From: Parcubacteria group bacterium GW2011_GWA2_48_9
GTDB lineage: Bacteria > Patescibacteriota > Patescibacteriia > UBA10025
Assembly (NCBI GenBank): GCA_001003705.1
Contig: LCPQ01000019.1
Span: forward strand, 3,268-67,267
Reading direction: 5' to 3'
Length of the DNA: 64,000 nucleotides
Shown: piece after piece, positions 6,647 through 23,487 of the stretch
How the letters are laid out: every line of letters starts with the position of its first letter
Numbering within the stretch: the first letter of the stretch is position 1
Program-made: the position numbers and the translations under genes
Notes under the pieces: generated by a model
Database searches by the model: none
Told to the model about the DNA's origin: nothing
The model's input: only the letters and a program-made list of their open reading frames with translations

Positions 6647-6655
6647 AAGAACGGT

Positions 6656-6904: not shown

Positions 6905-6995
6905 AGGAGTAATTTCGCTTTCTCTACGTTCTTTGTGGAAATAGTCCATTTTATGGGCTTTATTTAGTTATCCACAGATATAATGTAAAGTACAC

Positions 6996-7024: not shown

Positions 7025-7030
7025 TGTGAT

Positions 7031-7896: not shown

Positions 7897-7902
7897 TGTT
7901 CG

Positions 7903-8136
7903 ATGCGAGAGTTCATGAAGCTTTTTATTACCGCAAAAGCCGGAGCAAAAGAGGAGCGGGTCGAAAAAGTCGACGACACTCATTTTCGCGTTTGGGTGAA
8001 GGACCCCCCTGAAAAAGGAAAGGCTAATGATGCCATTACTAGAGCACTCGCCGAGCATATGGGAGTTGCCAAGTCACAGGTGGCGCTCATCTCAGGGAAA
8101 AAGTCAAAAAGGAAAATTATAGAAGTGGTGAAGTAA
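7903..8136 (+). CDS. DUF167 (YggU/UPF0235) family protein
   Basis: GKANDAITRALAEHMGVAKSQVALISGKKSKRK matches the DUF167 signature. Confidence 0.7.
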   Translation: MREFMKLFITAKAGAKEERVEKVDDTHFRVWVKDPPEKGKANDAITRALAEHMGVAKSQVALISGKKSKRKIIEVVK

Positions 8137-8205
8137 AGAAAAACGCCGTCCACTAGGGTACAATGGACGGCGTGAATGAGCGTATCGCATAGGTGCGACG
8201 GATTG

Positions 8206-8490
8206 TCAGCTGTTTTTTGCTGCATCGATGGCCGCGAAGACCATGGCCAGCCGTTCTCTCGAAATACATCGTGGGTTATCTACGAAGCTTCGTGCCTCGT
8301 CTTCGGTCAGTTCCTTTACGGTACTGCCGTCAGTCTTCAGCTCGGGCAGGTCGGCCTTTTCCAGCGGCATGACGCCGAACGGTGCGCCGTCTTTGTCGTC
8401 GCCCATCATGACGAATATACGCGCACCGCCGAGATACTCGTCGATAATGGTTTGCAAATCATCGGGAATTTCCACGTGTCTCCTTGCCAA
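8206..8490 (-). CDS. hypothetical protein
   Basis: Protein-like acidic composition. Lies in tandem with the 8516-9100 minus gene. The overlapping plus ORF 8228-9160 is low-complexity. Confidence 0.4.
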   Translation of the reverse strand: MARRHVEIPDDLQTIIDEYLGGARIFVMMGDDKDGAPFGVMPLEKADLPELKTDGSTVKELTEDEARSFVDNPRCISRERLAMVFAAIDAAKNS

Positions 8491-8515
8491 GCGTTTGGCC
8501 GGGTGGTGGGAAGGT

Positions 8516-9100
8516 TTACTTCTTCATCGGGATGAGCCGGTAATGTACTTCCATCCCGTTGAGTTGGGTGATGTGTTCCAAGTCACGGCCCGCTTTGAGC
8601 GCGTCCCAGACCTCGGGGAGCATTTCGAGCTCATCGAGGTGACCCATGATAGGTCCACGTACAGAGAGTATATAGGCGAGACGCAGGTTTTCGCCCTCTT
8701 CGTTGAGCACCTCGACAGGGTCCAGCGAACGCCAGTTTGGCGGGATGGACCTGCCAAAGAGCGGAGAGTCGTGCCGATACGCGACGTCATCCATGAAGGT
8801 CGACGGATCATAAACGGTAACGGCGATTTCATACTCATAGCCGATCGCGTCGTCGTCCTGGTAGATCCATTCAGCGGGTTGCACCGCGTACAAGGTGAAT
8901 TCAAGGCGAGTCGGCATGGACTGCTTGTACATGAGGAAACGTTGCTGAGTCGTGAATTGTTCGACCAGCTCAGTTTTCGCCTGTTCAGGTTCGTTGCCGC
9001 ACCCGACGACGAAGCATGCGATGGTGACGACAACGATGATGAGTACAAGGGCAGCGATGCTTGTGAGCACGTTGGGCCCATGCGTTTCGATTGCTTTCAA
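8516..9100 (-). CDS. hypothetical lipoprotein / membrane-anchored protein
   Basis: N-terminal TM followed by VVGCGNE (lipobox-like). Confidence 0.45.
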   Translation of the reverse strand: MKAIETHGPNVLTSIAALVLIIVVVTIACFVVGCGNEPEQAKTELVEQFTTQQRFLMYKQSMPTRLEFTLYAVQPAEWIYQDDDAIGYEYEIAVTVYDPSTFMDDVAYRHDSPLFGRSIPPNWRSLDPVEVLNEEGENLRLAYILSVRGPIMGHLDELEMLPEVWDALKAGRDLEHITQLNGMEVHYRLIPMKK

Positions 9101-9254
9101 AGGGCACCTCCAATTTTTGTGATACTGCGTTTACTTTCCCTAGTTTTTGATAATGCATAATATGTATTTTCAGGTATTTTGTCAACCCTAAAGACGTCGA
9201 TGATGAGCATCGGGGCTTGCTTTGTATGTTTTTTTCTGGTATCCTCTGTGCAAT

Positions 9255-11048
9255 ATGGAGATTAGAAACATTGCCATAATCGCCCATGTGGACCATGGGA
9301 AGACGACTTTGACTGACGCTATCATGCGGCAGACGGGCATGGTAACCGAGGAAGGCGCCACGATGGATTCGAACACGCTCGAGAAGGAGCGCGGCATTAC
9401 TATTTATGCGAAAAACGCGTCTGTCTTTTATCGCGACACGAAAATAAATATCGTCGACACTCCAGGGCACGCTGATTTTGGCTCGGAAGTTGAACGTGTC
9501 CTCCGTTCAATTGATAGTGTGGTGTTAGTCGTCGATGCGCAAGAAGGCCCGATGCCCCAGACGCGGTTTGTTTTAAAAAAATCACTTGAACTGGGCTTAA
9601 AACCCATTGTAGTATTGAACAAAATTGACAAGCCGGCGGCTGATCCTGATCTCGCGCAAGAAGAAGTGTATGAACTGTTCCTTGACCTTGGCGCAAACGA
9701 TGAACAGCTCGATTTCACGACCGTGTATGCCGTAGGCAGGGAGGGTAAGGCAATGCTGAACCTCACTGACGAAGCTATCGACTTGTCGCCTCTGCTCGAT
9801 ACTATTTTACTTAAAGTGCATCCGGCGCCCGCTGATACAGCAGCGCCATTCCGTTTCCAGCCATTTAATCTGGGCTATGATAACTATCTCGGCCGGCTTG
9901 CTATCGGAAGGATCTATGAAGGAAAGATACGGGCTGGTGAACAGCTTGTGCAAAAGAAAAATGACGGATCGCATGAAAGCGCGCGCGTTACGAAACTATT
10001 TTCATTCAAAGGGCTCCTGCGCGAAGAAGTGGTAGAAGCCGTCGCTGGTGACATAGTCATGATCGCCGGATTTCCCGGTATCGATATCGGAGAAACCCTG
10101 TGCGAGCGCGAGGACCAGCAGGCGTTGCCGGCAATCACCGTTGACGAGCCAACGATTTCACTGAATTTCTTGATCAATGATTCTCCGTTCTCAGGTAAAG
10201 ACGGCAAGTATGTCACGACGACCCAGCTGCGCGACAGGCTGAAAAAAGAGCTCGAGGTCAATGTAGGTTTGAATATTGATTTTCTTCCTGACGCGAACAA
10301 AGTCTACGGCCGCGGCGAGCTTCACGTAGCCATTTTGATTGAAAACATGCGCCGTGAAGGATATGAGGTGCAGGTCTCGCAGCCGCAGGTGATCATCAAG
10401 GAACGGGACGGAGTAAAGATGGAACCGTATGAGGAAGCTACTGTCGACGTGCCTGAGGCGTATTCGGGAATCGTCATAGAGAAGATGGGCAAAAGGAAAG
10501 GTATTATGACGACGATGGAAAATACGAGGGGACAGGTACGCATGATTTTCGAAATTCCGACTCGCGGATTGCTCGGTTACCGCGGCGAGTTTATCATCGA
10601 TACAAAAGGCGAAGGCATTCTGTGTTCGCGGGTTATCGGATTCCGACCGCACGCCGGCGGAATTCGTAAGCGCGACACCGGTTCGATGATTTCCATGGCA
10701 ACGGGTAAAGCACTGGGATTTTCGTTGGCAAATCTCCAAGAGCGCGGCATGTTATTTATCGGGCCCGGCACTGAAGTTTATGAAGGCATGGTGATAGGCA
10801 ACGCGTCGAAAGGCTTCGATATGCCGGTTAACCCCGTAAAGGGCAAGCGGCTGACCAATATGCGGGAGTCGGGAACGGACGAAGGTATCCATCTAGTAAC
10901 GCCGGTCCTCTTAACGATCGAGAGCGGACTCGAAATCATGGCGGAGGATGAATATCTCGAGGTGACGCCGAAGAGTGTCCGGCTGCGAAAGAAATATCTC
11001 ACCGAGGTAGACAGAAAACGCTCAGAGAAAGCTATACCGAAGGAGTAG
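9255..11048 (+). CDS. typA: translational GTPase TypA/BipA
   Basis: G1-G4 motifs (AHVDHGKTT, DTPGH, NKID) and full-length similarity to BipA. Start moved to MEIRNIAII. Confidence 0.9.
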   Translation: MEIRNIAIIAHVDHGKTTLTDAIMRQTGMVTEEGATMDSNTLEKERGITIYAKNASVFYRDTKINIVDTPGHADFGSEVERVLRSIDSVVLVVDAQEGPMPQTRFVLKKSLELGLKPIVVLNKIDKPAADPDLAQEEVYELFLDLGANDEQLDFTTVYAVGREGKAMLNLTDEAIDLSPLLDTILLKVHPAPADTAAPFRFQPFNLGYDNYLGRLAIGRIYEGKIRAGEQLVQKKNDGSHESARVTKLFSFKGLLREEVVEAVAGDIVMIAGFPGIDIGETLCEREDQQALPAITVDEPTISLNFLINDSPFSGKDGKYVTTTQLRDRLKKELEVNVGLNIDFLPDANKVYGRGELHVAILIENMRREGYEVQVSQPQVIIKERDGVKMEPYEEATVDVPEAYSGIVIEKMGKRKGIMTTMENTRGQVRMIFEIPTRGLLGYRGEFIIDTKGEGILCSRVIGFRPHAGGIRKRDTGSMISMATGKALGFSLANLQERGMLFIGPGTEVYEGMVIGNASKGFDMPVNPVKGKRLTNMRESGTDEGIHLVTPVLLTIESGLEIMAEDEYLEVTPKSVRLRKKYLTEVDRKRSEKAIPKE

Positions 11049-11073
11049 AGCCGCAGTTCTGTCGGTTAGGGGG

Positions 11074-11274
11074 TTGTGCTATGCTGAATGTAAAGATATG
11101 GGCGGACAGTTTGTCATCTATTTGTGCCTCTTTATCGGTTCTACGATGGGTGGGTATATTCCCACGCTATGGCATGATGATATTTTTTCGTTTTGGTCAA
11201 TTATTCTTTCCGTGATAGGCGGATTAATCGGCGTGTGGGTTGGATTTAAAATTAAACAGACTATAGAGGGTTAA
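11074..11274 (+). CDS. small membrane protein, GlsB/YeaQ/YmgE (transglycosylase-associated) family-like
   Basis: Two TM helices with a GxxxG-rich second helix (IILSVIGGLIGVWVGF). Probable start at 11098. Confidence 0.4.
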   Translation: MCYAECKDMGGQFVIYLCLFIGSTMGGYIPTLWHDDIFSFWSIILSVIGGLIGVWVGFKIKQTIEG

Positions 11275-11278
11275 GCAT

Positions 11279-11698
11279 ATGTCGTGGGTTTTATACGCAA
11301 TTCTTTCGGCCGTATGCGCATCTCTTGTCGCTATCTTCGGCAAGATTGGGGTGAAAAATCTTGATACCACCCTCGCGACGACAGTTCGGTCAGTCATCAT
11401 GGCAGTGTTTCTCATTATCACTGCGCTGGTTTTTGGAAAGGCGCCGCTGCTTTCGACTATTCACAGCAGGGCACTCCTGTATATTATTCTTTCAGGTGTT
11501 GCGGGCGCGCTTTCCTGGCTGTTTTACTTTTTTGCACTGAAAAACGGTCCCGCATCCGGCGTGGCTGCTCTCGACAGGACGAGTGTGATTTTCGTGCTGC
11601 TGTTGGCCATACTCTTCCTGGGTGAACGCCTCACTCTCAAATCGGGCATTGGTGTCGGCTTCGTTGCTGTTGGGGCGGTGCTCATGGCGATGAAATAA
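11279..11698 (+). CDS. EamA-like (DMT superfamily) small transporter
   Basis: 4-TM EamA domain (ILSGVAGALSWLFYFFAL...). Confidence 0.7.
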   Translation: MSWVLYAILSAVCASLVAIFGKIGVKNLDTTLATTVRSVIMAVFLIITALVFGKAPLLSTIHSRALLYIILSGVAGALSWLFYFFALKNGPASGVAALDRTSVIFVLLLAILFLGERLTLKSGIGVGFVAVGAVLMAMK

Positions 11699-11750
11699 TG
11701 AATACGTATTTTGTATACGTGTTGACGTCTTTATCATTAACAAAACTACT

Positions 11751-12149
11751 ATGAAAGGATTTATCCAAAATATAGAACGCATGACACTCGAGAACGATAA
11801 CTTCCGCAAAGTTCTTTACACGGCAAAGTACAGTCAGTTGGTGCTGATGAGCCTCAAGCCGGGGGAGGAGATCGGGACGGAAGTGCACCTGGACAATGAC
11901 CAGTTTTTCCGCTTTGAAAAGGGGAAAGGAAAAGTGATTATCGACGGAACTGAAAGCCTGGTGAAAGACGGCGTCGCTGTCATAATTCCTGCTGGGGCTG
12001 AGCACAATGTGATTAATACTTCTTCAGCCGAATCGTTGAAAATATATACCGTTTATTCTCCAGCGCATCATCGCGACGGCGTTGTCCACGGGACAAAGGA
12101 AGCAGCAGAGTCCGATGATGAAGAGTTTGATGGGAAAACGAGTGAATGA
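11751..12149 (+). CDS. cupin-domain protein
   Basis: Cupin motifs G(X)5HXH-like (EIGTEVHLDNDQFF...AVIIPAGAEHNV). Confidence 0.65.
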   Translation: MKGFIQNIERMTLENDNFRKVLYTAKYSQLVLMSLKPGEEIGTEVHLDNDQFFRFEKGKGKVIIDGTESLVKDGVAVIIPAGAEHNVINTSSAESLKIYTVYSPAHHRDGVVHGTKEAAESDDEEFDGKTSE

Positions 12150-12351
12150 GGGGAAAGTCGTAAGGAAACGCAGAAAAAAGACGATTATATATCCGGTTCC
12201 GTAGGTCATTGTAATCGCCTGGTGAACTATTGTCGACGCGACGCATAGTGGTTTGCTTCACGATAACGCGCATTTCCGCCATACTATGTATGTCGGTTGT
12301 TACCTTTTGCCCTCCCAATCGTTGTAGTAAGTAGAAATAACCTACGTACGT

Positions 12352-12924
12352 ATGGATGCAGCTAGGGAACGAAGCGTGCTTGAAGCGTGCCAACGGGGTG
12401 ATACGGAAATGTTCGGAGAGCTTTACGACGCATATATTGAGAAAATTTATTCGTTCATTTTTTATCGAACGAGCCATCGGGAGACGGCGGAGGATTTGAC
12501 GAGTGTGACGTTCACGAAAGCGCTGGAACATATCAGCACGTTCCGTGGCGGTTCATTCTCGTCCTGGCTCTACCGCATCGCGCGGAATACGGTGACCGAT
12601 CATTATCGGACGTCGAAGAACGTTACGTCCCTCGATGACGCTATAGCTGTGATGGCCGGGAAGTCGGACGTAGAGGACAGCGAACGCCGGCTCATTATCG
12701 AACAGGTGAAGCAGTATCTGCACACGTTGAAGCAGGAACATCAGGATGTGGTGCTGATGCGGATCTGGGACGATCTGCCCTATGAACGCATAGCGGAGAT
12801 AACGGGTAAATCAGAGGCCAACTGTAAAATGATCGTTTCCCGTTCCTTGAGCTCCATCAGGAAACAGTTCGCTATAGCTGCCGCGCTTATTCTTATTGGA
12901 CTATTATTTTTTCACCTCTTATGA
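12352..12924 (+). CDS. RNA polymerase sigma-70 factor, ECF subfamily
   Basis: Sigma-2 and sigma-4 regions (FGELYDAYIEKIYSFIFYR..., DLPYERIAEITGKSEANCKMIVSRSL). Its stop overlaps the next gene's start (ATGA). Confidence 0.85.
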   Translation: MDAARERSVLEACQRGDTEMFGELYDAYIEKIYSFIFYRTSHRETAEDLTSVTFTKALEHISTFRGGSFSSWLYRIARNTVTDHYRTSKNVTSLDDAIAVMAGKSDVEDSERRLIIEQVKQYLHTLKQEHQDVVLMRIWDDLPYERIAEITGKSEANCKMIVSRSLSSIRKQFAIAAALILIGLLFFHLL

Positions 12925-14282
12925 CCATTCATGAAAAGATCGAAAGTATTATGAAAGAACTCATCGACAACGACCCAGAACTCAAAAGTCACGAAAAGGC
13001 CGTGAGGCATATTGTTGCTTCGCTTCTGCAGGCGCGTCCGGATGCTGTCGTCGATGATACGTTTCGGGCCGAACTCAAACGGCGCCTTCTCGAAATGCCC
13101 GCTCCCTCGAGAGTTTCTCGATCGATGGGGCTATCGCGGACGTTCACACAATTTTTTAGCAATAAACTTGCTCTCGCTACTTCAGCCGCTGGCGTCGTGG
13201 CAGCGTTGCTTTTTATTACTCTCTGGATGAACTCGGGCATCCAAGACTCCTCACAGCGAACCATCCCGGTCATCCAGGGCGACGTGGAATTTTCTTTGAG
13301 CGCCCTGAATCAGGACACGCTGGGCGTCGACGCGACTAGTGCGTTTGCGCTTACCTCAAGTTTGCCGGTTGACGAAACGGCCATACGAGGAAACCTCACG
13401 ATCGAACCGGCAGTTCAATACAAACTTGAATCATCGGACTCGAATGAATTTACCATCATTCCCGAACAGACGCTCGACGCCAATACAATATACAAATTCA
13501 GCATGGTCGCCCAAAAGAGCGAAGCGGAACAGAAACGCGAATACCAATGGGCATTTCAGACCAAAGATACGTTTAAAATCATGAACACGCTTCCGCGCAA
13601 TCAGGGTACCCACGTCCCTCTGGATACCGGAATCGAGGTTACCTTTTCACATGAGAATTACGGCGCTGTAGAGGACCATTTCTCCGTTTCACCGGCTGTG
13701 AATGGCCGGTTCGAACGGTATCGGAAGACGCTCGTCTTTGTACCCGATTCGCTCCAGGCAAGCACGGTGTACACAGTCCGCGTCAGTGCCGGCGTACCGC
13801 TAGATGGCACTGATCAAACACTGGCCGAAGACTACCAGTTTCAGTTCGAAACCGATGCAACCGGAGGATATGGCGGGTACTACTCATACTTCGAGTTTAC
13901 AAAGGACTTCTTTGAGTACCCGAGTACTGAAACGCCAATCGCGACGGTATACGGCTATGACAGTCCTGGGTCAGTGCATGTCGGTGTCTATGCGTTTGGA
14001 ACGTTTGGCGAATTCCGCGACGCAATTGGTAGGCTGAACAACGTTCCGTATTGGGCTGACTATGCGCAGATGAATAACACGTTTCCCGTTGACAGCCTGG
14101 CGCTCCAGACTGAGTTCGACGCTGATGTGCGCTCGGAAGACTATCAGTATTACATCGAGTTCCCGGAAGCCCTTCCGAATGGCTACTATCTCATAGACAT
14201 TCCGGTAGACAGCTATCACGCGCAGGCCTTTCTCCAGGTCGGCAATTTGGCAGCCAGCTACCAAGCGAGCCCAGAAAGATGA
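12921..14282 (+). CDS. N-terminal part of giant anti-sigma-like / alpha-2-macroglobulin-like protein (cytoplasmic helical domain, 1 TM, SbsA-type Ig-like domain); probably continuous with 14293-18261
   Basis: About 90-aa cytoplasmic domain then TM (LALATSAAGVVAALLFITLWM). Big_5/SbsA-Ig-like stretch (FKIMNTLPRNQGTHVPLDTGIEVTF...TVYTVRVSAGV). No Cys. The downstream ORF's frame stays open upstream of its GTG start, across the 14282 stop. Confidence 0.55.
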   Translation: MTIHEKIESIMKELIDNDPELKSHEKAVRHIVASLLQARPDAVVDDTFRAELKRRLLEMPAPSRVSRSMGLSRTFTQFFSNKLALATSAAGVVAALLFITLWMNSGIQDSSQRTIPVIQGDVEFSLSALNQDTLGVDATSAFALTSSLPVDETAIRGNLTIEPAVQYKLESSDSNEFTIIPEQTLDANTIYKFSMVAQKSEAEQKREYQWAFQTKDTFKIMNTLPRNQGTHVPLDTGIEVTFSHENYGAVEDHFSVSPAVNGRFERYRKTLVFVPDSLQASTVYTVRVSAGVPLDGTDQTLAEDYQFQFETDATGGYGGYYSYFEFTKDFFEYPSTETPIATVYGYDSPGSVHVGVYAFGTFGEFRDAIGRLNNVPYWADYAQMNNTFPVDSLALQTEFDADVRSEDYQYYIEFPEALPNGYYLIDIPVDSYHAQAFLQVGNLAASYQASPER

Positions 14283-14292
14283 ATACGGTGAC

Positions 14293-17200
14293 GTGGCAGG
14301 GACGTATTACTTTTCGGTTACGGCCAATGACCAGCAACTTCTCGTGCCGGTGACTCACTATTACGGTTTCGGCGGCTATTACGGATCTACTGCGCCGAGA
14401 GACTATTGGGCGTATCTCTATACGAATCGGACTCTCTATTCTCCCGATGACAGTGTGAAGTTCTGGGGCGTGATCAAGCCGCGGTCGGGTGTCGGCGACG
14501 TCGATGAAGTAGAGGTGCGTTTCGTGAAAAGCGCCAACTACTACACCTCCAGTCAAGACGAGATCATCTCGCAGCAGCGCTTGCCCGTTTCATCGTTTCA
14601 TACTTTCCAGGGATCGATTGATTACACACATCTCACGCCAGAGGGGTACACGCTGCAGGTTCTGGTGGGGGACGAGGTGGTGATGACCTCGTACGTTTCG
14701 GTGGCTACCTACACGAAGCCGGCGTACAAGATCGACGTGACGACTCCGAAGAAAGCGATCTTCCAGGGTGAGAACGCCGTCTTCAATATCCAGTCGGTGT
14801 TTTTTGACGGGACACCCGTAGGCAACCTCGAACTCGAGTATACAGGCGCGCTCGGAGGCGGACGGGTGACTACCGATGAGAACGGTCAGGCAACCGTGAC
14901 GCTCGGTACCTCATACCAGGCTGATTCCTCTTCTCCTCGGTACGAGTACTTTTCAATTCATCCGACAAACGCGGAGCTGGCCGGCATTTATACCGATGCG
15001 TACATTTACTCATTCGGTCCGCGGTATTCCATCGAAGGATCAGCCACGGCCGAAGGGGCTCTGAGTGGATCAGTACATGCAGTCGACCTGGAACGCGTCA
15101 ATGCCGCGGGGGATGAGTTTGTCTGGGATTATGACGGCGATCCTGTCGCAGGCGCGAAGGTCACCATGACTGTATACCACGAGTACTACACCAGGACGGA
15201 AATAGGCACCCGTTATGACTTTATCAGCAAAAAGACTTACAAAACATACGATTACCAGCATCACTCAGATGAGGTACAAGAACTCACGGCATTCACAGAT
15301 GCAAATGGGGCGTATGCCGGGCAGTTCACTCCGCAAGCGGACCAGAATTATTTGATTAAGATGGAGGTGACTGATCCAGAAAGCCGGACAGCAGGAACAT
15401 CCGCCTATGTTTGGGAGGGACTTCGTTCGTACTACTTCGGCGATGGGTATGAGCGGTACTACATAGAAACTCTCGGAGGTACTGAAGGGCCGTATCGCTC
15501 CGGCGACGAGGTGACGCTTGGCCTCTTTCGCAATGAGGAGCGCCTGCCGGAGCAGAGCGGCGAGAGTATCCTGTATTTCAAAGGCCAGCGCGAGCTTTTT
15601 GACATCGCCCCCTCATCACAGTCCAGCACGACGCTCACTGTTACCGATGCGTACGCACCGAACATTTACGTGTATGCAGTATACTTCGACGGCCGTGCGT
15701 ACCACTTAGCTGATTTTTCACAGATCACGTTTGATAAGAGCGTTCGAGAGCTCTCGATCGATATAGCGCAGGACAAAGACGCCTACCGCCCAGGCGAGAA
15801 TGTGACATTGGACCTGACGGTGACTGAAGCTGACGGTGATCCCGTCGAAGCCCTGCTCAACGTTTCTGCCATCGATGAGGCTTTGGCAGTCATCCAGTGG
15901 GAAAACAGCAACGCGATCCTTGATACGCTCTACCGATCACTTCCATCTGCCGTCACCTACTCATACCAAACTCATGAGCAAGCGCTTCGCCCGATGGCTG
16001 AAGGCGGCGGGTGTTTTTCCGGGGATACTGGAGTTCTCATGTCAGATGGGACCACCAAGCCAATCTCCGAAGTGCGGATCGGCGACGAGGTGTTCACCTT
16101 TACTTCGCCAGGCGACATGACGCTCGTACCTGCTCGAGTAGTAAACACGCTCGAACATAACGTCGACAAGTACCTCGTGATCAACGGTTTACTCACCGTG
16201 ACGCCGGAACATATCGTGTGGCTCAATGACCAGTGGCAGCCGATCGGAAACGCGAGGGTCGGTGACCGCATTGTCAATGCTCATGGCGAGACTGTCCGGC
16301 TCACCAGCATTGAGCGGAATCACGAGTTGCTCACAGTCTACAATCTTCATCTCGATGGACCGCATACCTTCTTCGCGAACGGCGTCTACGTGCACAATGA
16401 AAAAGGCGGCGGCCGCCAAAACTTCCAGGACATAGCAGTATTTGAGAGTGTTGGGACTGATCGAAACGGACGCGCTACCGTCACGTTTAAGCTTCCGGAC
16501 AACGTAACCTCATGGCAGACGACGGTGCACGCGGTAACTGAAGACTTGCAAGCGGGCGCGACCCAAACAGCCGTCATCTCCACGTTGCCGTTTTTCGTTG
16601 ACGTCGCTGTCGCGTCTGATTATGTGGTGGGCGACAGGCCGCAGGTATTGGTGAGAAGCTTCGGACGCGAACTTGGCGATTCACAGATCACGTACACAGT
16701 GAGCTACCCAGACTACAGCGACGAAGAGACGACACTGACTGGTGCAGCTGGTGAAGTGACGTCTGTGGCACTTCCCGAGTTCACTGAAGGAACGTACAAA
16801 ATCCGTGTGGCTGCCAAACAGAGCGGCAATGAAGACGCAGTGATCCATAGCTTTACGTTTCATGATTCGAATATCACCCAGGGTACGGCGGGTTACTATC
16901 GCCTCGAGGAGGACATGGCCGTCGCCGGCAGCCCCGATGGCCGCACTTCTCTCGCATTCACGAATCTCGAACGCGGACAGTATTACTATGACCTCCGTGG
17001 CATGACGTGGGCGTATGGGGACAGGCTTGAGCAGCAGTTGGGGCGGCGACAAGCGCAGTCGCTTCTCAACGAGTACTTCGGAGAAAGTGCCAATGTGCCG
17101 AATATTACGTTTACCGACTATCAAGTGCCCGAGGGAGGACTCGCCATCTTGCCCTATTCGTCGGCTGAGCTGCTCCTGACAGCAAAGGCGTTCCTGGTGG

Positions 17201-18261
17201 CTCCCGACCTTTTTGACCGTATTGCCGCGCGCCAATACTTCGAAAGCGTACTGAACAATACCGGCAGCAATACCGAAGAGGTCGTCTACGCGCTCCTTGG
17301 CATGGCGGCGCTTGATGAGCCGGTGCTCACTGAGATCAACATCTTTCTGGAAAGTCATGAGCTCGAGCCGGAGTTGAAACTCTATCTCATACGTGCGGTG
17401 GCGCATCTCGGGGCGACGGAGTATGCGGCGTCCATGCTTCAGGATATTTTGGACGAGCATGCGAATGTTTCCGATCCTGTGACCGAAGTCGCGCTTGGCG
17501 AGGACCACGACGACTACGTCGAGTACACGTACCAAGCGGCAATAGTCGCAGCCGCCGTGTCTTCCGATCAGGCTCCGCTTCTGTATCGGTATGTGACGAC
17601 TACGCCGGCCACCTTCCATCTGAATGCGTTGGACCAGCTAGCGTATATCCAGACGGCATTGCCACTTTTGAGTGGAGACCCGGTGAGTTTTTCCTACACG
17701 CTCGACGGCGAATCACACGATGTAACTCTCGCGCGCGAGGATACGTTCAGACTATCGGTCGTCCCTGAACAACTCGAAAATCTTACCTTCTCTGATATCA
17801 GCGGTACTGTCGGACTCGTCGCGAGCTATGAAGAACCGGTCGATCTCGCAACCGTAGAGACAGATCCGAACCTGAGAATTAGCCGGCGCTATGAAGTGAA
17901 TAGCCGCGGGACAACCACGTTCCATGCCAATGACATCGTGAAAGTCATCCTTTCACCGAGCATCAACATAAAGGCGATAGATTCCGAATATCAGATTACC
18001 GACTACCTGCCCGCAGGATTAAAGCTGCTCACCAACCTGTCTTCGAGAGACTTGTCGTACGACCGGCTTCTCGAATTCCCCTATGAGATCAATGGCCAGG
18101 TCGTGAAATTTTGGAGCGGCAAACCGCGTAGTGCAGAGTTTTTCTACTACGCGATCGTCACCGGGAAAGGGGAATTCGTCGCTGAAGCGCCGAAAGTGCA
18201 GGGTTTCGTCGCGACAGGGAGCGTGAACTACGGGACGACCGAACGGGTCATTATCGAATAG
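14293..18261 (+). CDS. alpha-2-macroglobulin-like protein (thioester-less) carrying a Hint/intein-like domain at the bait-region position
   Basis: RQNFQDIAVFESVGTDRNGRATVTFKLPDNVTSWQTTVHAV matches the A2M R.NF.ET..F....TDENG.A.V.F.LPD.ITTW motif that follows the bait region. No CxEQ motif. Hint domain lies directly N-terminal to that motif. Confidence 0.6.
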   Translation: MAGTYYFSVTANDQQLLVPVTHYYGFGGYYGSTAPRDYWAYLYTNRTLYSPDDSVKFWGVIKPRSGVGDVDEVEVRFVKSANYYTSSQDEIISQQRLPVSSFHTFQGSIDYTHLTPEGYTLQVLVGDEVVMTSYVSVATYTKPAYKIDVTTPKKAIFQGENAVFNIQSVFFDGTPVGNLELEYTGALGGGRVTTDENGQATVTLGTSYQADSSSPRYEYFSIHPTNAELAGIYTDAYIYSFGPRYSIEGSATAEGALSGSVHAVDLERVNAAGDEFVWDYDGDPVAGAKVTMTVYHEYYTRTEIGTRYDFISKKTYKTYDYQHHSDEVQELTAFTDANGAYAGQFTPQADQNYLIKMEVTDPESRTAGTSAYVWEGLRSYYFGDGYERYYIETLGGTEGPYRSGDEVTLGLFRNEERLPEQSGESILYFKGQRELFDIAPSSQSSTTLTVTDAYAPNIYVYAVYFDGRAYHLADFSQITFDKSVRELSIDIAQDKDAYRPGENVTLDLTVTEADGDPVEALLNVSAIDEALAVIQWENSNAILDTLYRSLPSAVTYSYQTHEQALRPMAEGGGCFSGDTGVLMSDGTTKPISEVRIGDEVFTFTSPGDMTLVPARVVNTLEHNVDKYLVINGLLTVTPEHIVWLNDQWQPIGNARVGDRIVNAHGETVRLTSIERNHELLTVYNLHLDGPHTFFANGVYVHNEKGGGRQNFQDIAVFESVGTDRNGRATVTFKLPDNVTSWQTTVHAVTEDLQAGATQTAVISTLPFFVDVAVASDYVVGDRPQVLVRSFGRELGDSQITYTVSYPDYSDEETTLTGAAGEVTSVALPEFTEGTYKIRVAAKQSGNEDAVIHSFTFHDSNITQGTAGYYRLEEDMAVAGSPDGRTSLAFTNLERGQYYYDLRGMTWAYGDRLEQQLGRRQAQSLLNEYFGESANVPNITFTDYQVPEGGLAILPYSSAELLLTAKAFLVAPDLFDRIAARQYFESVLNNTGSNTEEVVYALLGMAALDEPVLTEINIFLESHELEPELKLYLIRAVAHLGATEYAASMLQDILDEHANVSDPVTEVALGEDHDDYVEYTYQAAIVAAAVSSDQAPLLYRYVTTTPATFHLNALDQLAYIQTALPLLSGDPVSFSYTLDGESHDVTLAREDTFRLSVVPEQLENLTFSDISGTVGLVASYEEPVDLATVETDPNLRISRRYEVNSRGTTTFHANDIVKVILSPSINIKAIDSEYQITDYLPAGLKLLTNLSSRDLSYDRLLEFPYEINGQVVKFWSGKPRSAEFFYYAIVTGKGEFVAEAPKVQGFVATGSVNYGTTERVIIE
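16012..16398 (+). other. Hint (intein-like / bacterial intein-like) domain, 129 aa, no endonuclease, inserted in-frame in the A2M-like protein
   Basis: Block A CFSGDTGVLMSDG (Cys1), block B TVTPEH (TxxH), blocks F and G LTVYNLHLDGPHTFFANGVYVHN. The +1 residue is Glu, not Cys/Ser/Thr. Flanked by GGG on both sides. Confidence 0.7.
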
Positions 18262-18266
18262 GAACT

Positions 18267-19175
18267 ATGCTGAAGCGCTGGTATGCGGGTCTATTGGTCA
18301 TCGCTGTCTGCGCTGTCGCTGGTGCGGTCTATTATTCGGTAGAGTCAAGCGGTGCCATCGATGTGGCCGTAACGTATGGGGATGAACCACGTGTGCTTGA
18401 CTCGAAATTCTACTTTGAGAAGCAGTTTACCCGTTCGGTAGAATCGGCAGCAACGAACGATGCGGTATTCCCGCAATCGCGTATCAGGGGCGGGATTATT
18501 CCCCACGACGTGACCCAGGGCCAGATCATTGCCCACTTTTTCCGTGAGCTGGAGAAAAATCCCCCGAAACGGATCATCCTCGTTGGCCCTAACCACTACG
18601 AACGCGGTGGAAGCATGGTGCTGACGACATCAACATCCTGGAGATCTGGGGCGGGCACGATACACGCTGATCGGGATGCGGTACGTTGGCTTGTCGACAA
18701 TCACTACGCGGTTGAAGATGATGAGGTAGCAGTTGACGAACACTCTATTGCAGGAATCACCCCGTACATTTCACACTATCTGCCTGAGGCACGAGTGATA
18801 CCGCTGATGCTGAAAGCCGAAGTTCGTCTCAACGAAATTCAGTCCATCTCGCGAGCGCTCGATGAGTTAGTTGACGACGAGACAGTCGTCATCGCCGCCG
18901 TGGACTTCTCGCATTATCTTACTGCCGATGAAGCTTCACGAAACGATATCGTGACTGAACAGGCGTTGCAGACATTTGACTATAAAAATATGCTTTCATT
19001 CGGCCCTCGCTTTAATGATTATATGGACTCACCCGGCAGTATTGCCTTGCTCCTCTACTGGTTGACGTCACAGGGTATAACGAAGTATGAACTGATTGAA
19101 CATACCAATTCCGGCATCCTTACCGGCGATATGACGAGCCCGGTAACAAGTTATTTTGAAGTCGTCTATTACTAG
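18267..19175 (+). CDS. MEMO1/AmmeMemoRadiSam-system-protein-B-like protein with N-terminal TM anchor
   Basis: MEMO family motifs: GGIIPHDV, ILVGPNHY, DEHSIAGITPYISHYLPEARVIPLML, VDFSHY. N-terminal hydrophobic segment LLVIAVCAVAGAVYY. Confidence 0.55.
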   Translation: MLKRWYAGLLVIAVCAVAGAVYYSVESSGAIDVAVTYGDEPRVLDSKFYFEKQFTRSVESAATNDAVFPQSRIRGGIIPHDVTQGQIIAHFFRELEKNPPKRIILVGPNHYERGGSMVLTTSTSWRSGAGTIHADRDAVRWLVDNHYAVEDDEVAVDEHSIAGITPYISHYLPEARVIPLMLKAEVRLNEIQSISRALDELVDDETVVIAAVDFSHYLTADEASRNDIVTEQALQTFDYKNMLSFGPRFNDYMDSPGSIALLLYWLTSQGITKYELIEHTNSGILTGDMTSPVTSYFEVVYY

Positions 19176-19235
19176 ACCGACAACTAGCTCATTACTAGAT
19201 ATTAGTTACTAGTGACTAAGTTACTTTGAAAGGGG

Positions 19236-19829
19236 GTGATATATATGCGTAAATTACTTATTCTGATCATTGCTACGTTCGTCGTATTCGGCTTTTCCGC
19301 GACCGCTCAGGCCTTCGAGTACAAGTCGATGATGCGAATGAATGGCGTCGCGGCATTTGCAGATTGGTATTCTGAAGATGAAGGAACTTCTATCTACTCA
19401 TACCTGCAGGTCGTTGAGACCAAGTCAGGTACTGATGTGATGTTCTTCACATGCACCGAATGGGTGGAGGGCGATGAGAACTTCTCGTCATGCAAAGACG
19501 GTTATCTGTTTACTACGGACGACGTCTTCTCAGTTGATAAGAAGTTAAACACAGCCACCCTCTCAGTGGCTGACCTTGAACTCTGGGACTGGAATGCCGG
19601 GACGTTTGAATTCGTGACGCTCGAAGCAGTGTGGAACGGTACTGGGGATCTCATGAAGGGAAGCTTTAAAGTAGTTGACAAATTCGACAACGTCACACAG
19701 AAGTTCAGCGACCGCTCAACGATGCGTGACGCTATGGCAAATGCTGAAGTAGGCGGAATGGATCTCGGCGACAGCGTGTATGGCGGCATCGCCCAGTTCC
19801 GCGACATGGAGATATTCATGGTGAAATAG
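19236..19829 (+). CDS. hypothetical secreted protein
   Basis: Cleavable signal peptide (…FSATAQA/FE); no domain recognised. Confidence 0.5.
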   Translation: MIYMRKLLILIIATFVVFGFSATAQAFEYKSMMRMNGVAAFADWYSEDEGTSIYSYLQVVETKSGTDVMFFTCTEWVEGDENFSSCKDGYLFTTDDVFSVDKKLNTATLSVADLELWDWNAGTFEFVTLEAVWNGTGDLMKGSFKVVDKFDNVTQKFSDRSTMRDAMANAEVGGMDLGDSVYGGIAQFRDMEIFMVK

Positions 19830-19851
19830 TGAACATCAATTGCAAACAAAG

Positions 19852-19878
19852 ACGGGGATGAACACTCCCCGTTTTTGT
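19852..19878 (+). terminator. rho-independent terminator (ACGGGGA-loop-TCCCCGT + TTTTT)
   Basis: Seen directly after the 19829 stop. Confidence 0.6.
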
Positions 19879-19937
19879 TACTAAAAGACAAAGGCGTCCC
19901 GAGAGTGGGGCGCCTGTCCGAAAACTGGAAGACGATG

Positions 19938-20276
19938 TCAGGCAGTTGCCGGCTGAACGGTGATTGACCGTGCGTTGAGATGTGGCCCAGCTCCTGTGTG
20001 CCACGTCTGTTGGGTTGCTCTACGTTCAAGCACAAGCGGAGATCCCTCAATGGTGAGAAACTCCTCTTGGCCCGTCTCGAGTCGGCTGAAACCGACTGCG
20101 ACTTCAACTACTCCCGTAAACGTGCTTCCATCGACGTTCACGATGACTCTGTCTCCCTTCTGAAAAGGGCACATAGGTACTCCTTCACTTTGGGTGTTTG
20201 TCTCGGTTAGTTCAATCGTAGTAGAGCGGGTCGGGTTCGTCAACGGTGGTATCGCCACTGCCCCAGATTCACGCAA
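19938..20276 (-). CDS. hypothetical small protein (possibly starting at the internal Met, about 78 aa)
   Basis: Convergent with the upstream gene in a locally GC-rich stretch. Contains a KGDRVIVNVDGSTFTGVV beta-rich motif. No homology recognised. Confidence 0.25.
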   Translation of the reverse strand: MRESGAVAIPPLTNPTRSTTIELTETNTQSEGVPMCPFQKGDRVIVNVDGSTFTGVVEVAVGFSRLETGQEEFLTIEGSPLVLERRATQQTWHTGAGPHLNARSITVQPATA

Positions 20277-20402
20277 TGTTCAGGTGGGAACCCCTTTTCT
20301 CATTGTGAATGATAAGTTCCCAGAAAGGTGTATCTATGCTATTCTCCATCCATAACGGTCGAACATTTTGTTTATCAAATAAGTAAGATAGGTCGTACAT
20401 AT

Positions 20403-20657
20403 ATGAAAATGAACATCCTCGATTGGATTACGTTTATCCTAGTCATTATTGGCGGTTTGAACTGGGGCCTGGTCGGTGCTGCAGACTTTGACTTGGTTGC
20501 AGAAATCTTTGGCGCTGATTCAAGCATTGCCATGGTTATCTACATCCTCGTCGGCATATCAGCACTCTACATGTTGGTCATGATGGCGATGAAGAGCAAA
20601 GGCGGAATGGAAATGAAGAAAGAGGCGCCGCCACAGCAGGGATCGCAAATGAACTAG
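20403..20657 (+). CDS. DUF378 family membrane protein
   Basis: ILVIIGGLNWGLVGAADFDLVAEIFG...IYILVGISALY matches DUF378. Start moved to MKMNILD. Confidence 0.65.
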   Translation: MKMNILDWITFILVIIGGLNWGLVGAADFDLVAEIFGADSSIAMVIYILVGISALYMLVMMAMKSKGGMEMKKEAPPQQGSQMN

Positions 20658-20689
20658 TCAGGTTTTTTGAAAAGAATACATTTCAATGG

Positions 20690-20725
20690 CCCCGGCCAAA
20701 ATCAGCCGGGGTTCATTGGTTTTCA
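20690..20725 (+). terminator. terminator-like hairpin (CCCCGGC-loop-GCCGGGG) followed by T-rich tract
   Basis: 7-bp GC stem after the DUF378 gene. Confidence 0.4.
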
Positions 20726-20763
20726 TTTATTACCTCCAAGAGCAGCCCGCGCTCGGTAGTTTA

Positions 20764-21591
20764 TTAAAACTCCACCTGTGTTACTAAGCGTTTGAGCTCG
20801 TTTTCGTCAGCGTTCACAGTCATAATCCGCTTCCATTCGTCATAGTGCACATTGCCGGTTGGGCGGTTGAAGGATTCCTGTGTGTGCGGGAAGCAGCGCT
20901 TCACGATTTTCTGGAAGTCTGTAAACGAGGGTTTCTCAAAAAGTGGGTGCCGTGATTCAAACATCTTAACAATACGAGGGAAATTTTTTTCTCTTGATGA
21001 CAGGTAGAGAGCATAATATTCAGACGGCGAGATCACGGTGCCATAGACAGGATCCTCGATTGGCGTGATAAAACTCGCGTTGCCAGCGTAGATTTCATGC
21101 AAGGCTTCGCCGAACGCGTCCATTTTATCGGCGTACTTCACCACTTGCGATTCGATGGTATTTCCCTCTTGGACTTCATGAAGTAGGTCGCGGTAGTTAA
21201 ACACACCTACAGTTTCAGGGAAACGCTTAACTGTTTCAGCAATAGCGATAAGTTCGCGTTTTGCTACATCATCAAGTTGTTCGCGCGACATGGAGTACTT
21301 GTGGCCGGCCTGGATGTCGCCAAGCACGATTTCAAAATCATCATGAACACAGGCCATTAGTGAAGTTTTTTTTGGGTTGAATACTGGTCCGAAGGAGTTT
21401 TCGGCTATCGGTATCATTTCCTCTACTAGCCAATTCACATGCCGTGAATGGGCAAGTAGATCGGATCGGTAGTACATGGGTTTGTAGATGTAATATCGCG
21501 TGACTTTCCGTAACGCCCGCTCCCTGCCATCGAAATTTTCGAATGTTTTCTGATATGCTACCGTGTTCATAGTGCTTTTGCAGTGTGGCAT
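20764..21591 (-). CDS. HD-domain phosphohydrolase (YfbR-like 5'-nucleotidase family)
   Basis: HSRHVNWLV...CVHDDFEIVLGDI (H...HD...D metal-binding pattern). Confidence 0.65.
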   Translation of the reverse strand: MPHCKSTMNTVAYQKTFENFDGRERALRKVTRYYIYKPMYYRSDLLAHSRHVNWLVEEMIPIAENSFGPVFNPKKTSLMACVHDDFEIVLGDIQAGHKYSMSREQLDDVAKRELIAIAETVKRFPETVGVFNYRDLLHEVQEGNTIESQVVKYADKMDAFGEALHEIYAGNASFITPIEDPVYGTVISPSEYYALYLSSREKNFPRIVKMFESRHPLFEKPSFTDFQKIVKRCFPHTQESFNRPTGNVHYDEWKRIMTVNADENELKRLVTQVEF

Positions 21592-21639
21592 TTATGAGCA
21601 GCGTTTTCAAGGAGGCGTTTTTTCTGTATCATTAACTGT

Positions 21640-22500
21640 ATGAAGAACAAAAATATTCACGTGGCCATTATCGCCGCATTAGTTACAGTAGCTGTCGTGG
21701 TCGTATATTTCATGCAAAACAATCAGCAGGCTGCGGATGATTCGAAGAAGGACCCCTTCATCTCACAGACACTGAACAGATGGAGTGTGACGCCGAAGGG
21801 TTCTATTCTGTTGAGCGGTTTCGACGCTCATGACCCTGATGGCGGTGATATTGCATGGTATGAGTGGAGTATCGTATCAGCACCGCCGGAGCATCAAGAC
21901 CGTTTAGCTGAAACGGTATACGCCGGAAAGGAATACCCCTCCGTTGAAATCCCAGTTACCAGTGATGATGTCGGGCAGTGGACATTTGAACTCACTATCC
22001 GTGACGATGAAGGCGCTCAGGCGATGGCGGGAGCTATTGTTACCGTCAGAGAACGTATTGATGCGATAGTGTCAGCAACATTGGTGCAAAAAGAAACGGC
22101 TGGTGAGGTCCCTCGGGACGAAATGGTAGTAGGAGTGGTAGTGGACGGTGTCGCCGCGGCGTTTCCCCGTTCGGTGATGGGCCACCATGCGATCGCAAAT
22201 GCTCTGATAAGCGGCGAACCGATAGTCGTAATATTTTGTGAATTTTGCCAGACCGGAATTGCCTATAACAGGTTTGTCAGCGGACGGGTTCTCACATTCC
22301 AGACGCTCGGGGGTACGCTCCTCGAAGATGATTATGTTGCGAAGGACTTGGAAACTGACACCACGTGGCGCATCATCGAGGGGAAAGCAACCGAAGGCGA
22401 ACTGGCAGAAATGGAATTGGATTCCATTAATCTCACCTTGGCTACGTGGGAGGGGTGGCTTGCCGAGCATCCCGATACGCTGGTGCTTGTTGACGGGTAA
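21640..22500 (+). CDS. membrane-anchored DUF3179-domain protein
   Basis: N-terminal TM. C-terminal region (VVVDGVAAAFP...IVVIFCEFCQTGIAYNR...TWEGWLAEHPDTLVL) resembles DUF3179. Confidence 0.5.
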   Translation: MKNKNIHVAIIAALVTVAVVVVYFMQNNQQAADDSKKDPFISQTLNRWSVTPKGSILLSGFDAHDPDGGDIAWYEWSIVSAPPEHQDRLAETVYAGKEYPSVEIPVTSDDVGQWTFELTIRDDEGAQAMAGAIVTVRERIDAIVSATLVQKETAGEVPRDEMVVGVVVDGVAAAFPRSVMGHHAIANALISGEPIVVIFCEFCQTGIAYNRFVSGRVLTFQTLGGTLLEDDYVAKDLETDTTWRIIEGKATEGELAEMELDSINLTLATWEGWLAEHPDTLVLVDG

Positions 22501-22569
22501 GGCGGTGCTGGAGTGCAGGGTTGCTGCCACGGTTTTTTTTAGGTATACTGTTTTTTACGTGTAAAAAGT

Positions 22570-23487
22570 ATGGAAAATATCATCGAAGTAAAGGATCTCA
22601 CGAAAAAATACGGCGATTTTACCGCTGTTGACGCTATCTCATTTACTGTTCAACGCGGTGAGACGTTCGGAATTCTAGGGCCCAATGGAGCAGGTAAGAC
22701 GACGACGCTCGAAATGATTGAAGGGCTGAAGTCGATCACTTCCGGAGAAGTGCTGGTTGACGGACATGATGTTCACAAGGATCCCCGTCTAGTGAAATCT
22801 TTAATAGGCGTCCAGCTCCAGTCGTCGTCCTTTTTCGATGGCCTGAACTTAAAAGAGTTGGTGGAAACTTTCGGGGCTCTCTACAGCCGGACCGTTGATG
22901 GAATGAAACTCCTGAAGGACGTTCAGCTGGACGAAAAATGGAAAAGCCAGGTGAAGGAATTATCCGGTGGCCAAAAGCAGCGGTTATCAATCGCTGTTGC
23001 GCTCGTGAATGATCCGAAAATCATCTTTCTCGATGAGCCGACGACAGGCTTGGATCCGCAAGCACGGCGAAATTTATGGGATTTGGTAAACGCAATTAAA
23101 TTGCAAGGGAAGACGGTTGTTTTAACCACCCACTACATGGAAGAAGCAGAGATCTTGTGCGACCGTATCGCCATCATGGACCACGCGAAGATCATCACTA
23201 TGGACAGCCCGATCAATCTTCTCAAACAGAGCGGAGTGGGGTCGCAGGTCGAATTTCACGTCGACCACCATGTCGATGAAGACAGGTTTAAAAACCTTCC
23301 TGGTGTTCAGCACGTGGTCGTCGAGGATCACGGAGTCCGCCTTACCACGAATGATCCGCAGCGCGTATTGACGAGCCTCTTCCAGCTCGAACAGTCTGCA
23401 GGGTTTAAGATTTTTGATATGCAGCTTCACCAGGCCACGCTCGAAGACGTATTTTTGAAATTAACGGGCCGCACACTGCGCGAATGA
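22570..23487 (+). CDS. ABC transporter ATP-binding protein
   Basis: Walker A GPNGAGKTT, signature LSGGQKQR, Walker B IIFLDEPTTGLD. Confidence 0.85.
   Translation: MENIIEVKDLTKKYGDFTAVDAISFTVQRGETFGILGPNGAGKTTTLEMIEGLKSITSGEVLVDGHDVHKDPRLVKSLIGVQLQSSSFFDGLNLKELVETFGALYSRTVDGMKLLKDVQLDEKWKSQVKELSGGQKQRLSIAVALVNDPKIIFLDEPTTGLDPQARRNLWDLVNAIKLQGKTVVLTTHYMEEAEILCDRIAIMDHAKIITMDSPINLLKQSGVGSQVEFHVDHHVDEDRFKNLPGVQHVVVEDHGVRLTTNDPQRVLTSLFQLEQSAGFKIFDMQLHQATLEDVFLKLTGRTLRE

Follow-up and report, generated by a model that had tools for sequence, protein, structure and literature searches.

Why should a bacterium couple an extracytoplasmic function (ECF) sigma factor to a giant macroglobulin of its cell surface? 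The question is raised by a locus in a window of 64,000 nucleotides from Parcubacteria group bacterium GW2011_GWA2_48_9 (contig LCPQ01000019.1, forward-strand positions 3,268 to 67,267; all coordinates below count from the first letter of the window). Four closely spaced genes, all on the + strand, encode an ECF sigma factor, an alpha-2-macroglobulin (A2M)-like protein that the record splits into two open reading frames (ORFs), a MEMO-family protein and a small protein (Table 1). The explanation that we favour, and consider moderately probable, is that a sigma factor and its anti-sigma factor share an operon with a MEMO enzyme, the anti-sigma factor being extended outside the cell by a macroglobulin that carries a Hint domain.

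Macroglobulin ectodomain and the Hint domain in its bait linker

By sequence and predicted structure, the large protein is a genuine homologue of the fold shared by A2M and thioester-containing proteins (TEP). Pfam models place Big_5 in two stretches at residues 218-311 (nt 13572-13853, E 3.7e-15) and A2M_BRD and A2M further downstream, and both the Big_5-like immunoglobulin (Ig)-like domain and the A2M-like body proposed in a preliminary description of the locus, made from the DNA letters alone, are thereby borne out. An AlphaFold2 (AF2) model of the C-terminal 1193 residues (14680-18258), made with 63 aligned sequences, has a mean predicted local distance difference test (pLDDT) score of 87.4. 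When the model was compared with the PDB by Foldseek, each of the 50 best matches was an A2M, complement, TEP or CD109 structure (E 5e-42 to 2e-27); E. coli ECAM (E 5e-42) comes first, then Salmonella A2M, and human A2M, C3/C4/C5 and CD109 are among the others. At the sequence level, the family profile likewise matches human A2M, TEP1 and the C-terminus of ECAM, and the features by which A2M/TEP proteins are recognised (MG ring, BRD, MG7, TED and MG8 fold) are all found with Pfam, AF2 and Foldseek. The motif from which the A2M-like body had originally been recognised lies inside the PF00207 match, LPDN[ILV]TSW being a family signature. In TMq the model is at 0.53 to protease-activated ECAM (4ziq), at 0.45 to active CD109 and at 0.26 to native ECAM (5a42), a closer likeness to the activated form that we leave without interpretation because of possible modelling bias.

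The protein has no CxEQ thioester motif, and the single cysteine in its 1780 residues is Cys1 of the Hint domain described below. About 17 residues into the TED-like domain stands a motif G-x-R-[LIV]-[ED]-Q (GDRLEQ, 17017-17034), whose Arg is present in 71 of 71 aligned sequences. Judged by its position, where A2M and C3 carry G-C-x-E-Q, it is possibly what remains of the thioester site after a change from Cys to Arg.

Relatives of the A2M-like protein occur in at least 573 species genomes, in a scan that took one genome per species. The best 80 loci, which were studied in detail, come mostly from the candidate phyla radiation (CPR), namely Parcu-, Uhr-, Magasanik-, Falkow-, Peregrini-, Gracili-, Doudna- and Collierbacteria and others, and include a few Firmicutes and Chloroflexi without a Hint domain. 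Members of the family are at present named merely 'Ig-like domain-containing' or 'polymorphic toxin-type HINT domain-containing'. One Hint-bearing locus (L016) is labelled candidate division WOR-1, and many others are labelled 'uncultured Gammaproteobacteria/Pseudomonadales' in third-party annotation (TPA) assemblies; these labels look like mis-assigned bins of CPR type rather than the true host range.

A Hint domain, which the preliminary description had missed, occupies the place of the bait region and alters the mechanistic picture. The domain lies between the A2M_BRD and A2M matches, precisely within the Gly-rich linker: in an alignment, Hint-less Firmicutes relatives read GGAEKGG/EGGGERKDF where this protein reads MAEGGG/C-Hint-HN/EKGGGRQNF (slashes mark the junctions), and the only low-pLDDT stretches around Hint in the AF2 model are the two junctions. 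The intein_Cterm model TIGR01443 scores 22 bits on it, against a cut-off of 15.6. Across 76 orthologues, Cys1, the block B motif T64-x-x-H67 and His128-Asn129 are invariant or 99% conserved, and the residue at -1 is Gly in 74. The +1 residue, Glu in the window, is Glu in 30 orthologues, Asp in 27, Ala in seven, Gln in six, Asn in three, Ser in two and Ile in one, and never Cys or Thr. The domain measures 129 residues in 68 of the 76, and thus contains no endonuclease.

The Hint domain therefore has the N-terminal nucleophile, the TxxH and the HN of a canonical class 1 intein, but not the Cys, Ser or Thr at +1. Its N-terminal Cys, its C-terminal His-Asn and the lack of a +1 nucleophile are those of type A bacterial intein-like (BIL) domains (PMC4031507), and on these sequence features it is by definition a type A BIL domain. 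Such domains form an N-terminal thioester and cleave at their C-terminal Asn; they may also splice by aminolysis, although cleavage products dominate (PMC4031507). The best solved relatives of the Hint profile are the toxin Hint structures 6y75/6tmm (E 2.5e-17), and PDB entry 2lwy, a 'bacterial intein-like domain' (E 2.7e-15), ranks ahead of mini-inteins (3e-9). The best 120 matches include 37 Hint-bearing homologues, and in 15 of these, too, Cys1 is the sole cysteine. From the conserved catalytic residues and this sole cysteine we infer that the Hint domain would process the bait linker autocatalytically.

The Hint domain is moreover better conserved than its flanks (mean pairwise identity 45% vs 33%), and its divergence tracks that of its host (Pearson r = 0.69), which together indicate that it is an old component of the protein, inherited vertically and under selection, rather than a mobile intein. 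A canonical mobile intein was rejected on account of this vertical inheritance, the missing +1 nucleophile, the missing endonuclease and the insertion in a linker. Loci that appeared to hold a double Hint (spans of ~800-1000 aa) were also discarded: the total ORF lengths are normal, so that the second, partial matches are spurious.

It is possible, though in our view unlikely, that the Hint domain is a fixed but neutral splicing element that excises itself efficiently and leaves a mature protein like the Hint-less form of the Firmicutes, with no role in maturation, trapping or signalling. The flanks AEGGG/EKGGG would indeed rejoin into a Gly-rich linker such as that of the Hint-less relatives (AEKGG/EGGGE), type A BILs can splice (PMC4031507), and the linkage to sigma factors is independent of Hint, being present in the Hint-less loci L076 and L080. 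However, sporadic loss would be expected of a neutral element, whereas the Hint domain has been kept at one site in 76 of the loci analysed, at a constant length, without an endonuclease and with a conservation above that of its host. Moreover, its site is a flexible linker and not a conserved active site, and type A BILs yield mainly cleavage products.

A second alternative, to which we give a comparably small share of probability, concerns the ectodomain as a whole. It could be a surface protein of A2M fold with a structural, adhesive or shielding role, and what the sigma pair reports would then be the general state of the envelope or of attachment, not protease attack. The lack of a thioester, the very short bait linker of Hint-less relatives and the Ig-like Big_5 domains at the N-terminus would suit such a protein, as would the MEMO partner, which is at times fused to a CapA/PGA_cap-like domain and thereby hints at surface-polymer chemistry. 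The CPR literature, for its part, only speculates on defence: of the large membrane proteins with A2M domains in the CPR bacterium Vampirococcus it is said that they 'may play a defensive role' (PMC8080830). However, the full A2M domain set, including BRD, TED-like domain and MG8, has been kept, in a model of high confidence. Thioester-less bacterial A2Ms of the YfaS/MagD type, furthermore, are still considered protease-binding.

Cytoplasmic domain and its linkage to ECF sigma factors

The sigma factor consists of sigma-2 and sigma-4 domains only (Sigma70_r2 at residues 24-89, E 5e-16; r4_2 at residues 117-166, E 5e-9) in ~190 residues, as is characteristic of ECF factors, and scores 82.6 bits on the sigma70-ECF model TIGR02937, whose cut-off is 42.9; no NCBIfam equivalog model reaches its cut-off on this protein. 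Its TGA and the ATG of the A2M-like gene overlap as ATGA, as had been described (sequence ...TTATGACC, in the context …CTCTTATGACC…). In the related locus L001, a sigma orthologue at the same position shows the same 4-nt overlap with the gene of the orthologous protein P0001.

The A2M-like protein begins with a cytoplasmic segment that had been put at about 90 helical residues followed by one transmembrane (TM) helix, and this layout holds, with ~83 residues, three helices and one TM helix. In an AF2 model of residues 1-110, helices 3-17, 19-38 and 46-58 (pLDDT 74-84) are followed by a disordered linker and by the TM helix at 88-105, which scores 2.26 in a 19-residue Kyte-Doolittle window. The predicted three-helix fold is compatible with an anti-sigma domain without being diagnostic of one. 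The overall layout is that of an anti-sigma factor: the gene lies directly 3' of the sigma gene, in the same orientation, and encodes an N-in single-pass protein with a helical cytoplasmic domain.

A strong argument for an anti-sigma function is genomic. Among 80 loci with an intact 5' end, surveyed by ORF calling and phmmer, an ECF sigma gene lies directly upstream and on the same strand in 38, from CPR lineages as well as Firmicutes and including Hint-less loci of Clostridia and Peptococcia. Ahead of the TM helix, the cytoplasmic extension is 65 aa long at the median in loci with a sigma gene against 15.5 aa in those without, and an extension of at least 36 aa is found in 38/38 sigma-linked and 5/42 unlinked loci (Mann-Whitney p = 7e-14). 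In 28 of the 38 pairs, the distance from the sigma stop to the start of the A2M-like gene is between -16 and +6 nt.

The N-domain also travels apart from the macroglobulin. An exhaustive phmmer search of 1.84 billion representatives with the 83-aa domain gave 82 significant matches, unlike a word-indexed protein search with the same query, which gave nothing. Nearly all matches fall at residues ~3-65 of other proteins, mostly proteins of ~500 aa whose ectodomain (~400 aa) is unknown to Pfam; one match bears a Beta_propel ectodomain and one DUF7282. The shared motif, I..I...L...DP.L..HE..l…LL.a(R/K)Pd…D..F…L(R/K)..L, is followed by a TM helix. All three of the ~500-aa members that were looked up sit immediately downstream of an ECF sigma gene, and their sigma factors are 49, 47 and 39% identical to that of the window, whereas the sigma factor beside the closer A2M orthologue P0004 is 29% identical and is accompanied by a different type of N-domain. 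Judged from these identities, sigma factor and N-domain are inherited as a cassette that is joined to different ectodomains, which is how sigma/anti-sigma pairs evolve.

We therefore consider it likely that the N-domain is the anti-sigma factor for the adjacent sigma factor. The part of the earlier anti-sigma proposal that rests on coupling is thus strengthened by the co-occurrence and by the modular cassette, whereas no known anti-sigma family or structure could be put behind it. When 20 N-domains were compared with Pfam at E <= 10, only noise and no known anti-sigma family appeared, and the window's N-domain has no match among PDB sequences (profile search) or PDB folds (Foldseek). It carries no Cys/His zinc motif of class I anti-sigma domains, and it is recognisable neither as class I ASD/zf-HC2 nor as RskA or RsgI_N. 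It is conceivable, then, that the sigma factor merely transcribes the operon and that the N-extension is a tail with another role, such as localisation or stability, the true anti-sigma factor, if any, being encoded elsewhere. Besides the lack of homology to known anti-sigma domains, the N-domains of the A2M orthologues, which fall into at least three dissimilar types, would fit this possibility. We nevertheless judge it highly unlikely, as the extension is present in every sigma-linked locus, the N-domain moves with closely related sigma factors onto unrelated ectodomains, and an overlapping stop and start ahead of an N-in single-pass protein is the canonical layout of ECF anti-sigma factors.

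Some further observations concern the sigma factors and N-domains of these genomes. The sigma factor of the window ends in a hydrophobic tail of 18 residues (FAIAAALILIGLLFFHLL, 12868-12921), with comparable tails only in L001, L082 and, weaker, L038; a tail-anchored sigma factor would be unusual, and alternatively the overlap with the start of the next gene may have produced the tail incidentally. The ~500-aa single-pass CPR proteins with an N-domain of the window's type (L085 4001-5527, P0203; L086 4001-5524, P0207; L087 4001-5569, P0210) form a widespread, uncharacterised, putative anti-sigma family with a conserved ectodomain, and its N-domain is also carried by P0122-P0133. An 809-aa Beta_propel (PF09826) membrane protein encoded at 26606-29035 of the window has a differing N-terminus and no adjacent sigma gene; P0129, a member of the Beta_propel family elsewhere, carries the sigma-linked N-domain. 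More ECF sigma genes lie within a few kb of A2M loci (L003 20536-22207; L086 6180-7482; downstream in L022, L029, L039 and L064), and each has a partner of its own, either a single-pass protein of DUF5667 type or a multi-TM protein that starts with M..IS..I..KIK…KP(I/L)P.W.F. These small genomes are rich in ECF pairs.

Gene continuity, the MEMO partner and the extent of the module

In the record the A2M-like gene appears as ORFs 12921-14282 and 14293-18261, in different frames. The public scaffold L084 (ENA ERZ28564302, 104 kb) is 100.000% identical to the window over 4302-14265, 14271-25119 and 25119-28139, and at the junction of the two ORFs it has 10 N followed by 121 nt that are absent from the window and encode …HDLTTGRPVGGADISFSHNQSFSAQTDGDGLAVFTSPSEI…, colinear with P0001. 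The latter, from a Parcubacteria metagenome-assembled genome, is a single protein of 1822 aa, 80% identical to the joined translation and intact across the break region; in general the joined translation matches single proteins of 1750-1870 aa. Since the gap in L084 falls exactly at the break and the orthologues are intact, the gene is one. The ~150 missing nucleotides produce a false stop at 14280-14282 and the change of frame, the stop being an assembly or gap-closing artefact, and the true protein has ~1827 aa. Joining the ORFs, as the preliminary description did, was thus correct, but the length of ~1775 aa was not, as a stretch is missing and no simple frameshift is involved. A second piece of 121 nt (L084 20945-21065) is missing from the window at 25119, inside a gene for an Fe/Mn superoxide dismutase, and the equal size of the two pieces suggests a systematic assembly or gap-closing artefact. 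That the gene is truly broken in the organism, as the stop and frame change of the window taken at face value would have it, has next to no probability and is effectively excluded by the L084 comparison, given a break exactly on a scaffold gap, a second loss that points to a technical cause and two halves that are each full-length and conserved.

The MEMO protein encoded next is assigned by PF01875 (100.7 bits, cut-off 27) and TIGR04336 (121.4 bits, cut-off 26), and a MEMO gene lies directly 3' of the A2M-like gene in 57 of 84 related loci. Of the other partners in the AmmeMemoRadiSam system, neither AMMECR1 nor radical SAM genes are among the genes called around the locus in L084, L002 and L003. 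In several lineages (L016 11102-12889, L033 11160-12902, L038 11540-13492 and L045 9339-11138), MEMO is, by eye, fused C-terminally to a CapA/PGA_cap-like metallophosphatase (LLFGGDVMLGR…GHHPHV), which points tentatively to a surface polymer as the target of MEMO.

The downstream MEMO-like and small secreted proteins noted earlier are both present, but only MEMO is a conserved partner. Homologues of the 197-aa protein are absent from 83 related loci, which makes it lineage-specific, and a search downstream of MEMO revealed no third gene that is conserved, with no cluster larger than two loci; the 197-aa gene, having no counterparts, is therefore placed outside the conserved module. The genes are separated by -4, 5 and 60 nt, and no strong + strand terminator is seen, which fits with one transcript. 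The module is thus [ECF sigma with or without N-domain] - A2M-like (with or without Hint) - MEMO.

Table 1. Features of the sigma factor-macroglobulin locus, in window coordinates
Feature	Position	Strand	Basis
ECF (group 4) sigma-70 factor, 190 aa	12352..12924	+	Pfam Sigma70_r2 and r4_2, TIGR02937
Cytoplasmic N-domain, aa 1-83, putative anti-sigma domain	12921..13169	+	ATGA overlap, AF2 helices, homology, sigma co-occurrence
Single TM helix (signal anchor, N-in)	13170..13232	+	Hydropathy, AF2
N-terminal ectodomain: Big_5 Ig-like domains and first MG-like domain	13233..14265	+	Pfam, alignment with intact orthologues
Assembly junction, ~150 nt missing, encoding roughly '(AS)PVNSFIWLHDLTTGRPVGGADISFSHNQSFSAQTDGDGLAVFTSPSEI'	14265..14271	.	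L084 comparison
Remainder of A2M-like gene (open frame from 14206; listed ORF 14293-18261)	14206..18261	+	MG domains, Pfam, AF2
A2M_BRD	15487-15885	+	Pfam, E 1.3e-15
Hint, bacterial-intein-like type A, 129 aa, in Gly-rich bait linker	16012..16398	+	Pfam Hint, Vint, PT-HINT; TIGR01443
A2M/MG7 region	16450-16647	+	Pfam A2M, E 2e-9
Helical TED-like domain without thioester	16972..17667	+	AF2 helices at 765-996 of modelled fragment
C-terminal MG8-like domain of A2M-like protein	17683-18258	+	
TM-anchored extracytoplasmic MEMO-family protein	18267..19175	+	Pfam Memo, E 1e-28; N-terminal hydrophobic segment; 5 nt after A2M stop
Small protein, 197 aa, signal-like N-terminus	19236..19829	+	No Pfam or NCBIfam match

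Proposed mechanism and relation to known systems

We propose that the sigma factor, the A2M-like surface protein and the extracytoplasmic MEMO enzyme would form a three-gene envelope operon of this Parcubacteria-like CPR bacterium. As the genomic co-inheritance suggests, the 83-aa N-domain would be the cognate anti-sigma module and hold the co-translated sigma factor at the membrane, while the ectodomain would expose on the cell surface a thioester-less A2M-type body made of Big_5, MG domains, BRD, MG7, a TED-like domain and MG8. With its invariant catalytic residues, the Hint domain would make a thioester at the Gly-Cys junction by an N-S acyl shift and cleave at its C-terminal Asn, and the outcome would be either a protein cut into two chains that MG6 keeps associated, as in processed C3/C4, or excision of the domain itself. 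In the former case the chains would stay together because the bait linker interrupts MG6, as is known from structures of the C3 family. Proteolytic or mechanical damage to the ectodomain or a change in its conformation, likeliest through foreign proteases, may then lead to removal of the anti-sigma domain, likeliest by regulated intramembrane proteolysis in which additional trimming and a site-2 protease would probably take part. By analogy with RsiV, RsiW, RseA and RsgI, the sigma factor so released would up-regulate its own operon and replenish macroglobulin and MEMO. Protease sensing by the A2M-like protein is put forward here by analogy.

Perhaps the Hint domain is more than a processing device. 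It could be a chemical switch that replaces the lost CxEQ, either because its thioester in the bait loop tethers the membrane-anchored N-fragment covalently to an attacker or because conditional self-cleavage arms or triggers the conformational change of the macroglobulin, with the event being relayed to the anti-sigma domain in the sigma-linked forms. Resolution of the Hint thioester by a nucleophile would resemble the transfer of Hedgehog to cholesterol. In that case a self-cleaving ECF pathway that senses proteases or nucleophiles would operate on the surface of CPR episymbionts. We regard such a switch as distinctly unlikely.

Apart from the negative searches with the N-domain, several points weigh against the mechanism proposed above. 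The A2M-like protein has no thioester, the bait linker of Hint-less relatives comprises only ~25 Gly-rich residues, and for this clade protease trapping is putative. The Hint domain lies ~940 residues from the membrane, so that a cut there cannot itself be the site-1 event or make a short stub for a site-2 protease. About half of the orthologues have neither the sigma gene nor the N-domain, which makes signalling an add-on and not the core function of the family. Finally, a promoter scan and a comparison with L001 identified no sigma-dependent promoter and no clear ECF-type -35/-10 elements, the comparison being uninformative because the region 5' of the sigma gene is almost identical in the two.

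The locus shares with the membrane ECF pairs RsiV-SigV, RsiW-SigW, RseA-RpoE and RsgI-SigI the order of sigma gene and single-pass protein, the overlapping codons, the helical cytoplasmic domain and the sensory ectodomain. It differs from them in that the N-domain belongs to no known family and the ectodomain is an A2M-type machine of ~1,700 aa. Precedents for autoproteolytic anti-sigma ectodomains exist in RsgI, whose autoproteolytic module is a juxtamembrane SEAL domain (PMC10328401, PMC10556640), whereas the module here is the remote Hint domain. With the bacterial A2Ms (ECAM/YfhM and Salmonella A2M) the protein has in common the MG/BRD/TED/MG8 architecture, the fold and the attachment to the surface or membrane, and YfaS/MagD likewise have no CxEQ thioester. 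In contrast to those proteins, it has an N-terminal TM anchor rather than a lipobox, an additional Big_5, a Hint domain in the bait region and a MEMO partner instead of PBP1C or a yfa/mag operon; about half of its family has a sigma-linked cytoplasmic domain, and the hosts belong to monoderm or CPR lineages.

The Hint domain resembles type A BIL/PT-HINT domains in its N-terminal Cys, TxxH and His-Asn, in the absence of a +1 nucleophile, in its size of ~130 aa and in being part of an extracytoplasmic protein. However, those domains precede and release variable C-terminal toxin or hypervariable regions, whereas this one occupies a fixed internal site, the A2M bait linker, across many CPR lineages. 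In complement C3/C4 the cleavage site lies at the same topological place, in the linker that interrupts MG6, and the chains remain associated; here, however, the autocatalytic Hint would take the place of furin, and there is neither an anaphylatoxin domain nor a thioester. Although the locus resembles both a membrane ECF sigma/anti-sigma pair and a bacterial A2M, it falls outside several specific families: known anti-sigma domains are absent, and so are a thioester, the +1 nucleophile of canonical inteins and AMMECR1 or radical SAM partners for MEMO.

The preliminary description knew of no system with this architecture, and our literature searches, combining BIL/Hint, anti-sigma/ECF or CPR with macroglobulin, likewise found none, although their coverage is incomplete and an earlier description is possible. 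New here are the type of sensor for ECF signalling and the self-processing architecture within the A2M family; the locus type is widespread and not a one-off. To these come an anti-sigma-like N-domain, likewise new, which behaves as a module, and the pairing of A2M-like and MEMO genes, which is conserved.

For signalling across the membrane in a single step, bacteria rely mainly on ECF sigma/anti-sigma pairs, and what the ectodomains of these pairs respond to is mostly unknown. A recognisable A2M-type sensor would offer a concrete hypothesis, namely that protease attack switches on a sigma regulon. The Hint domain, for its part, is, as far as our searches reached, the first Hint/BIL fixed in the macroglobulin bait loop, whose cleavage controls the family from bacterial A2M to complement; it links two classic thioester chemistries, and an A2M that naturally cleaves itself would be of use in structural studies and in engineering. 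The family dominates in the CPR/Patescibacteria, whose surface biology and interaction with hosts are poorly understood.

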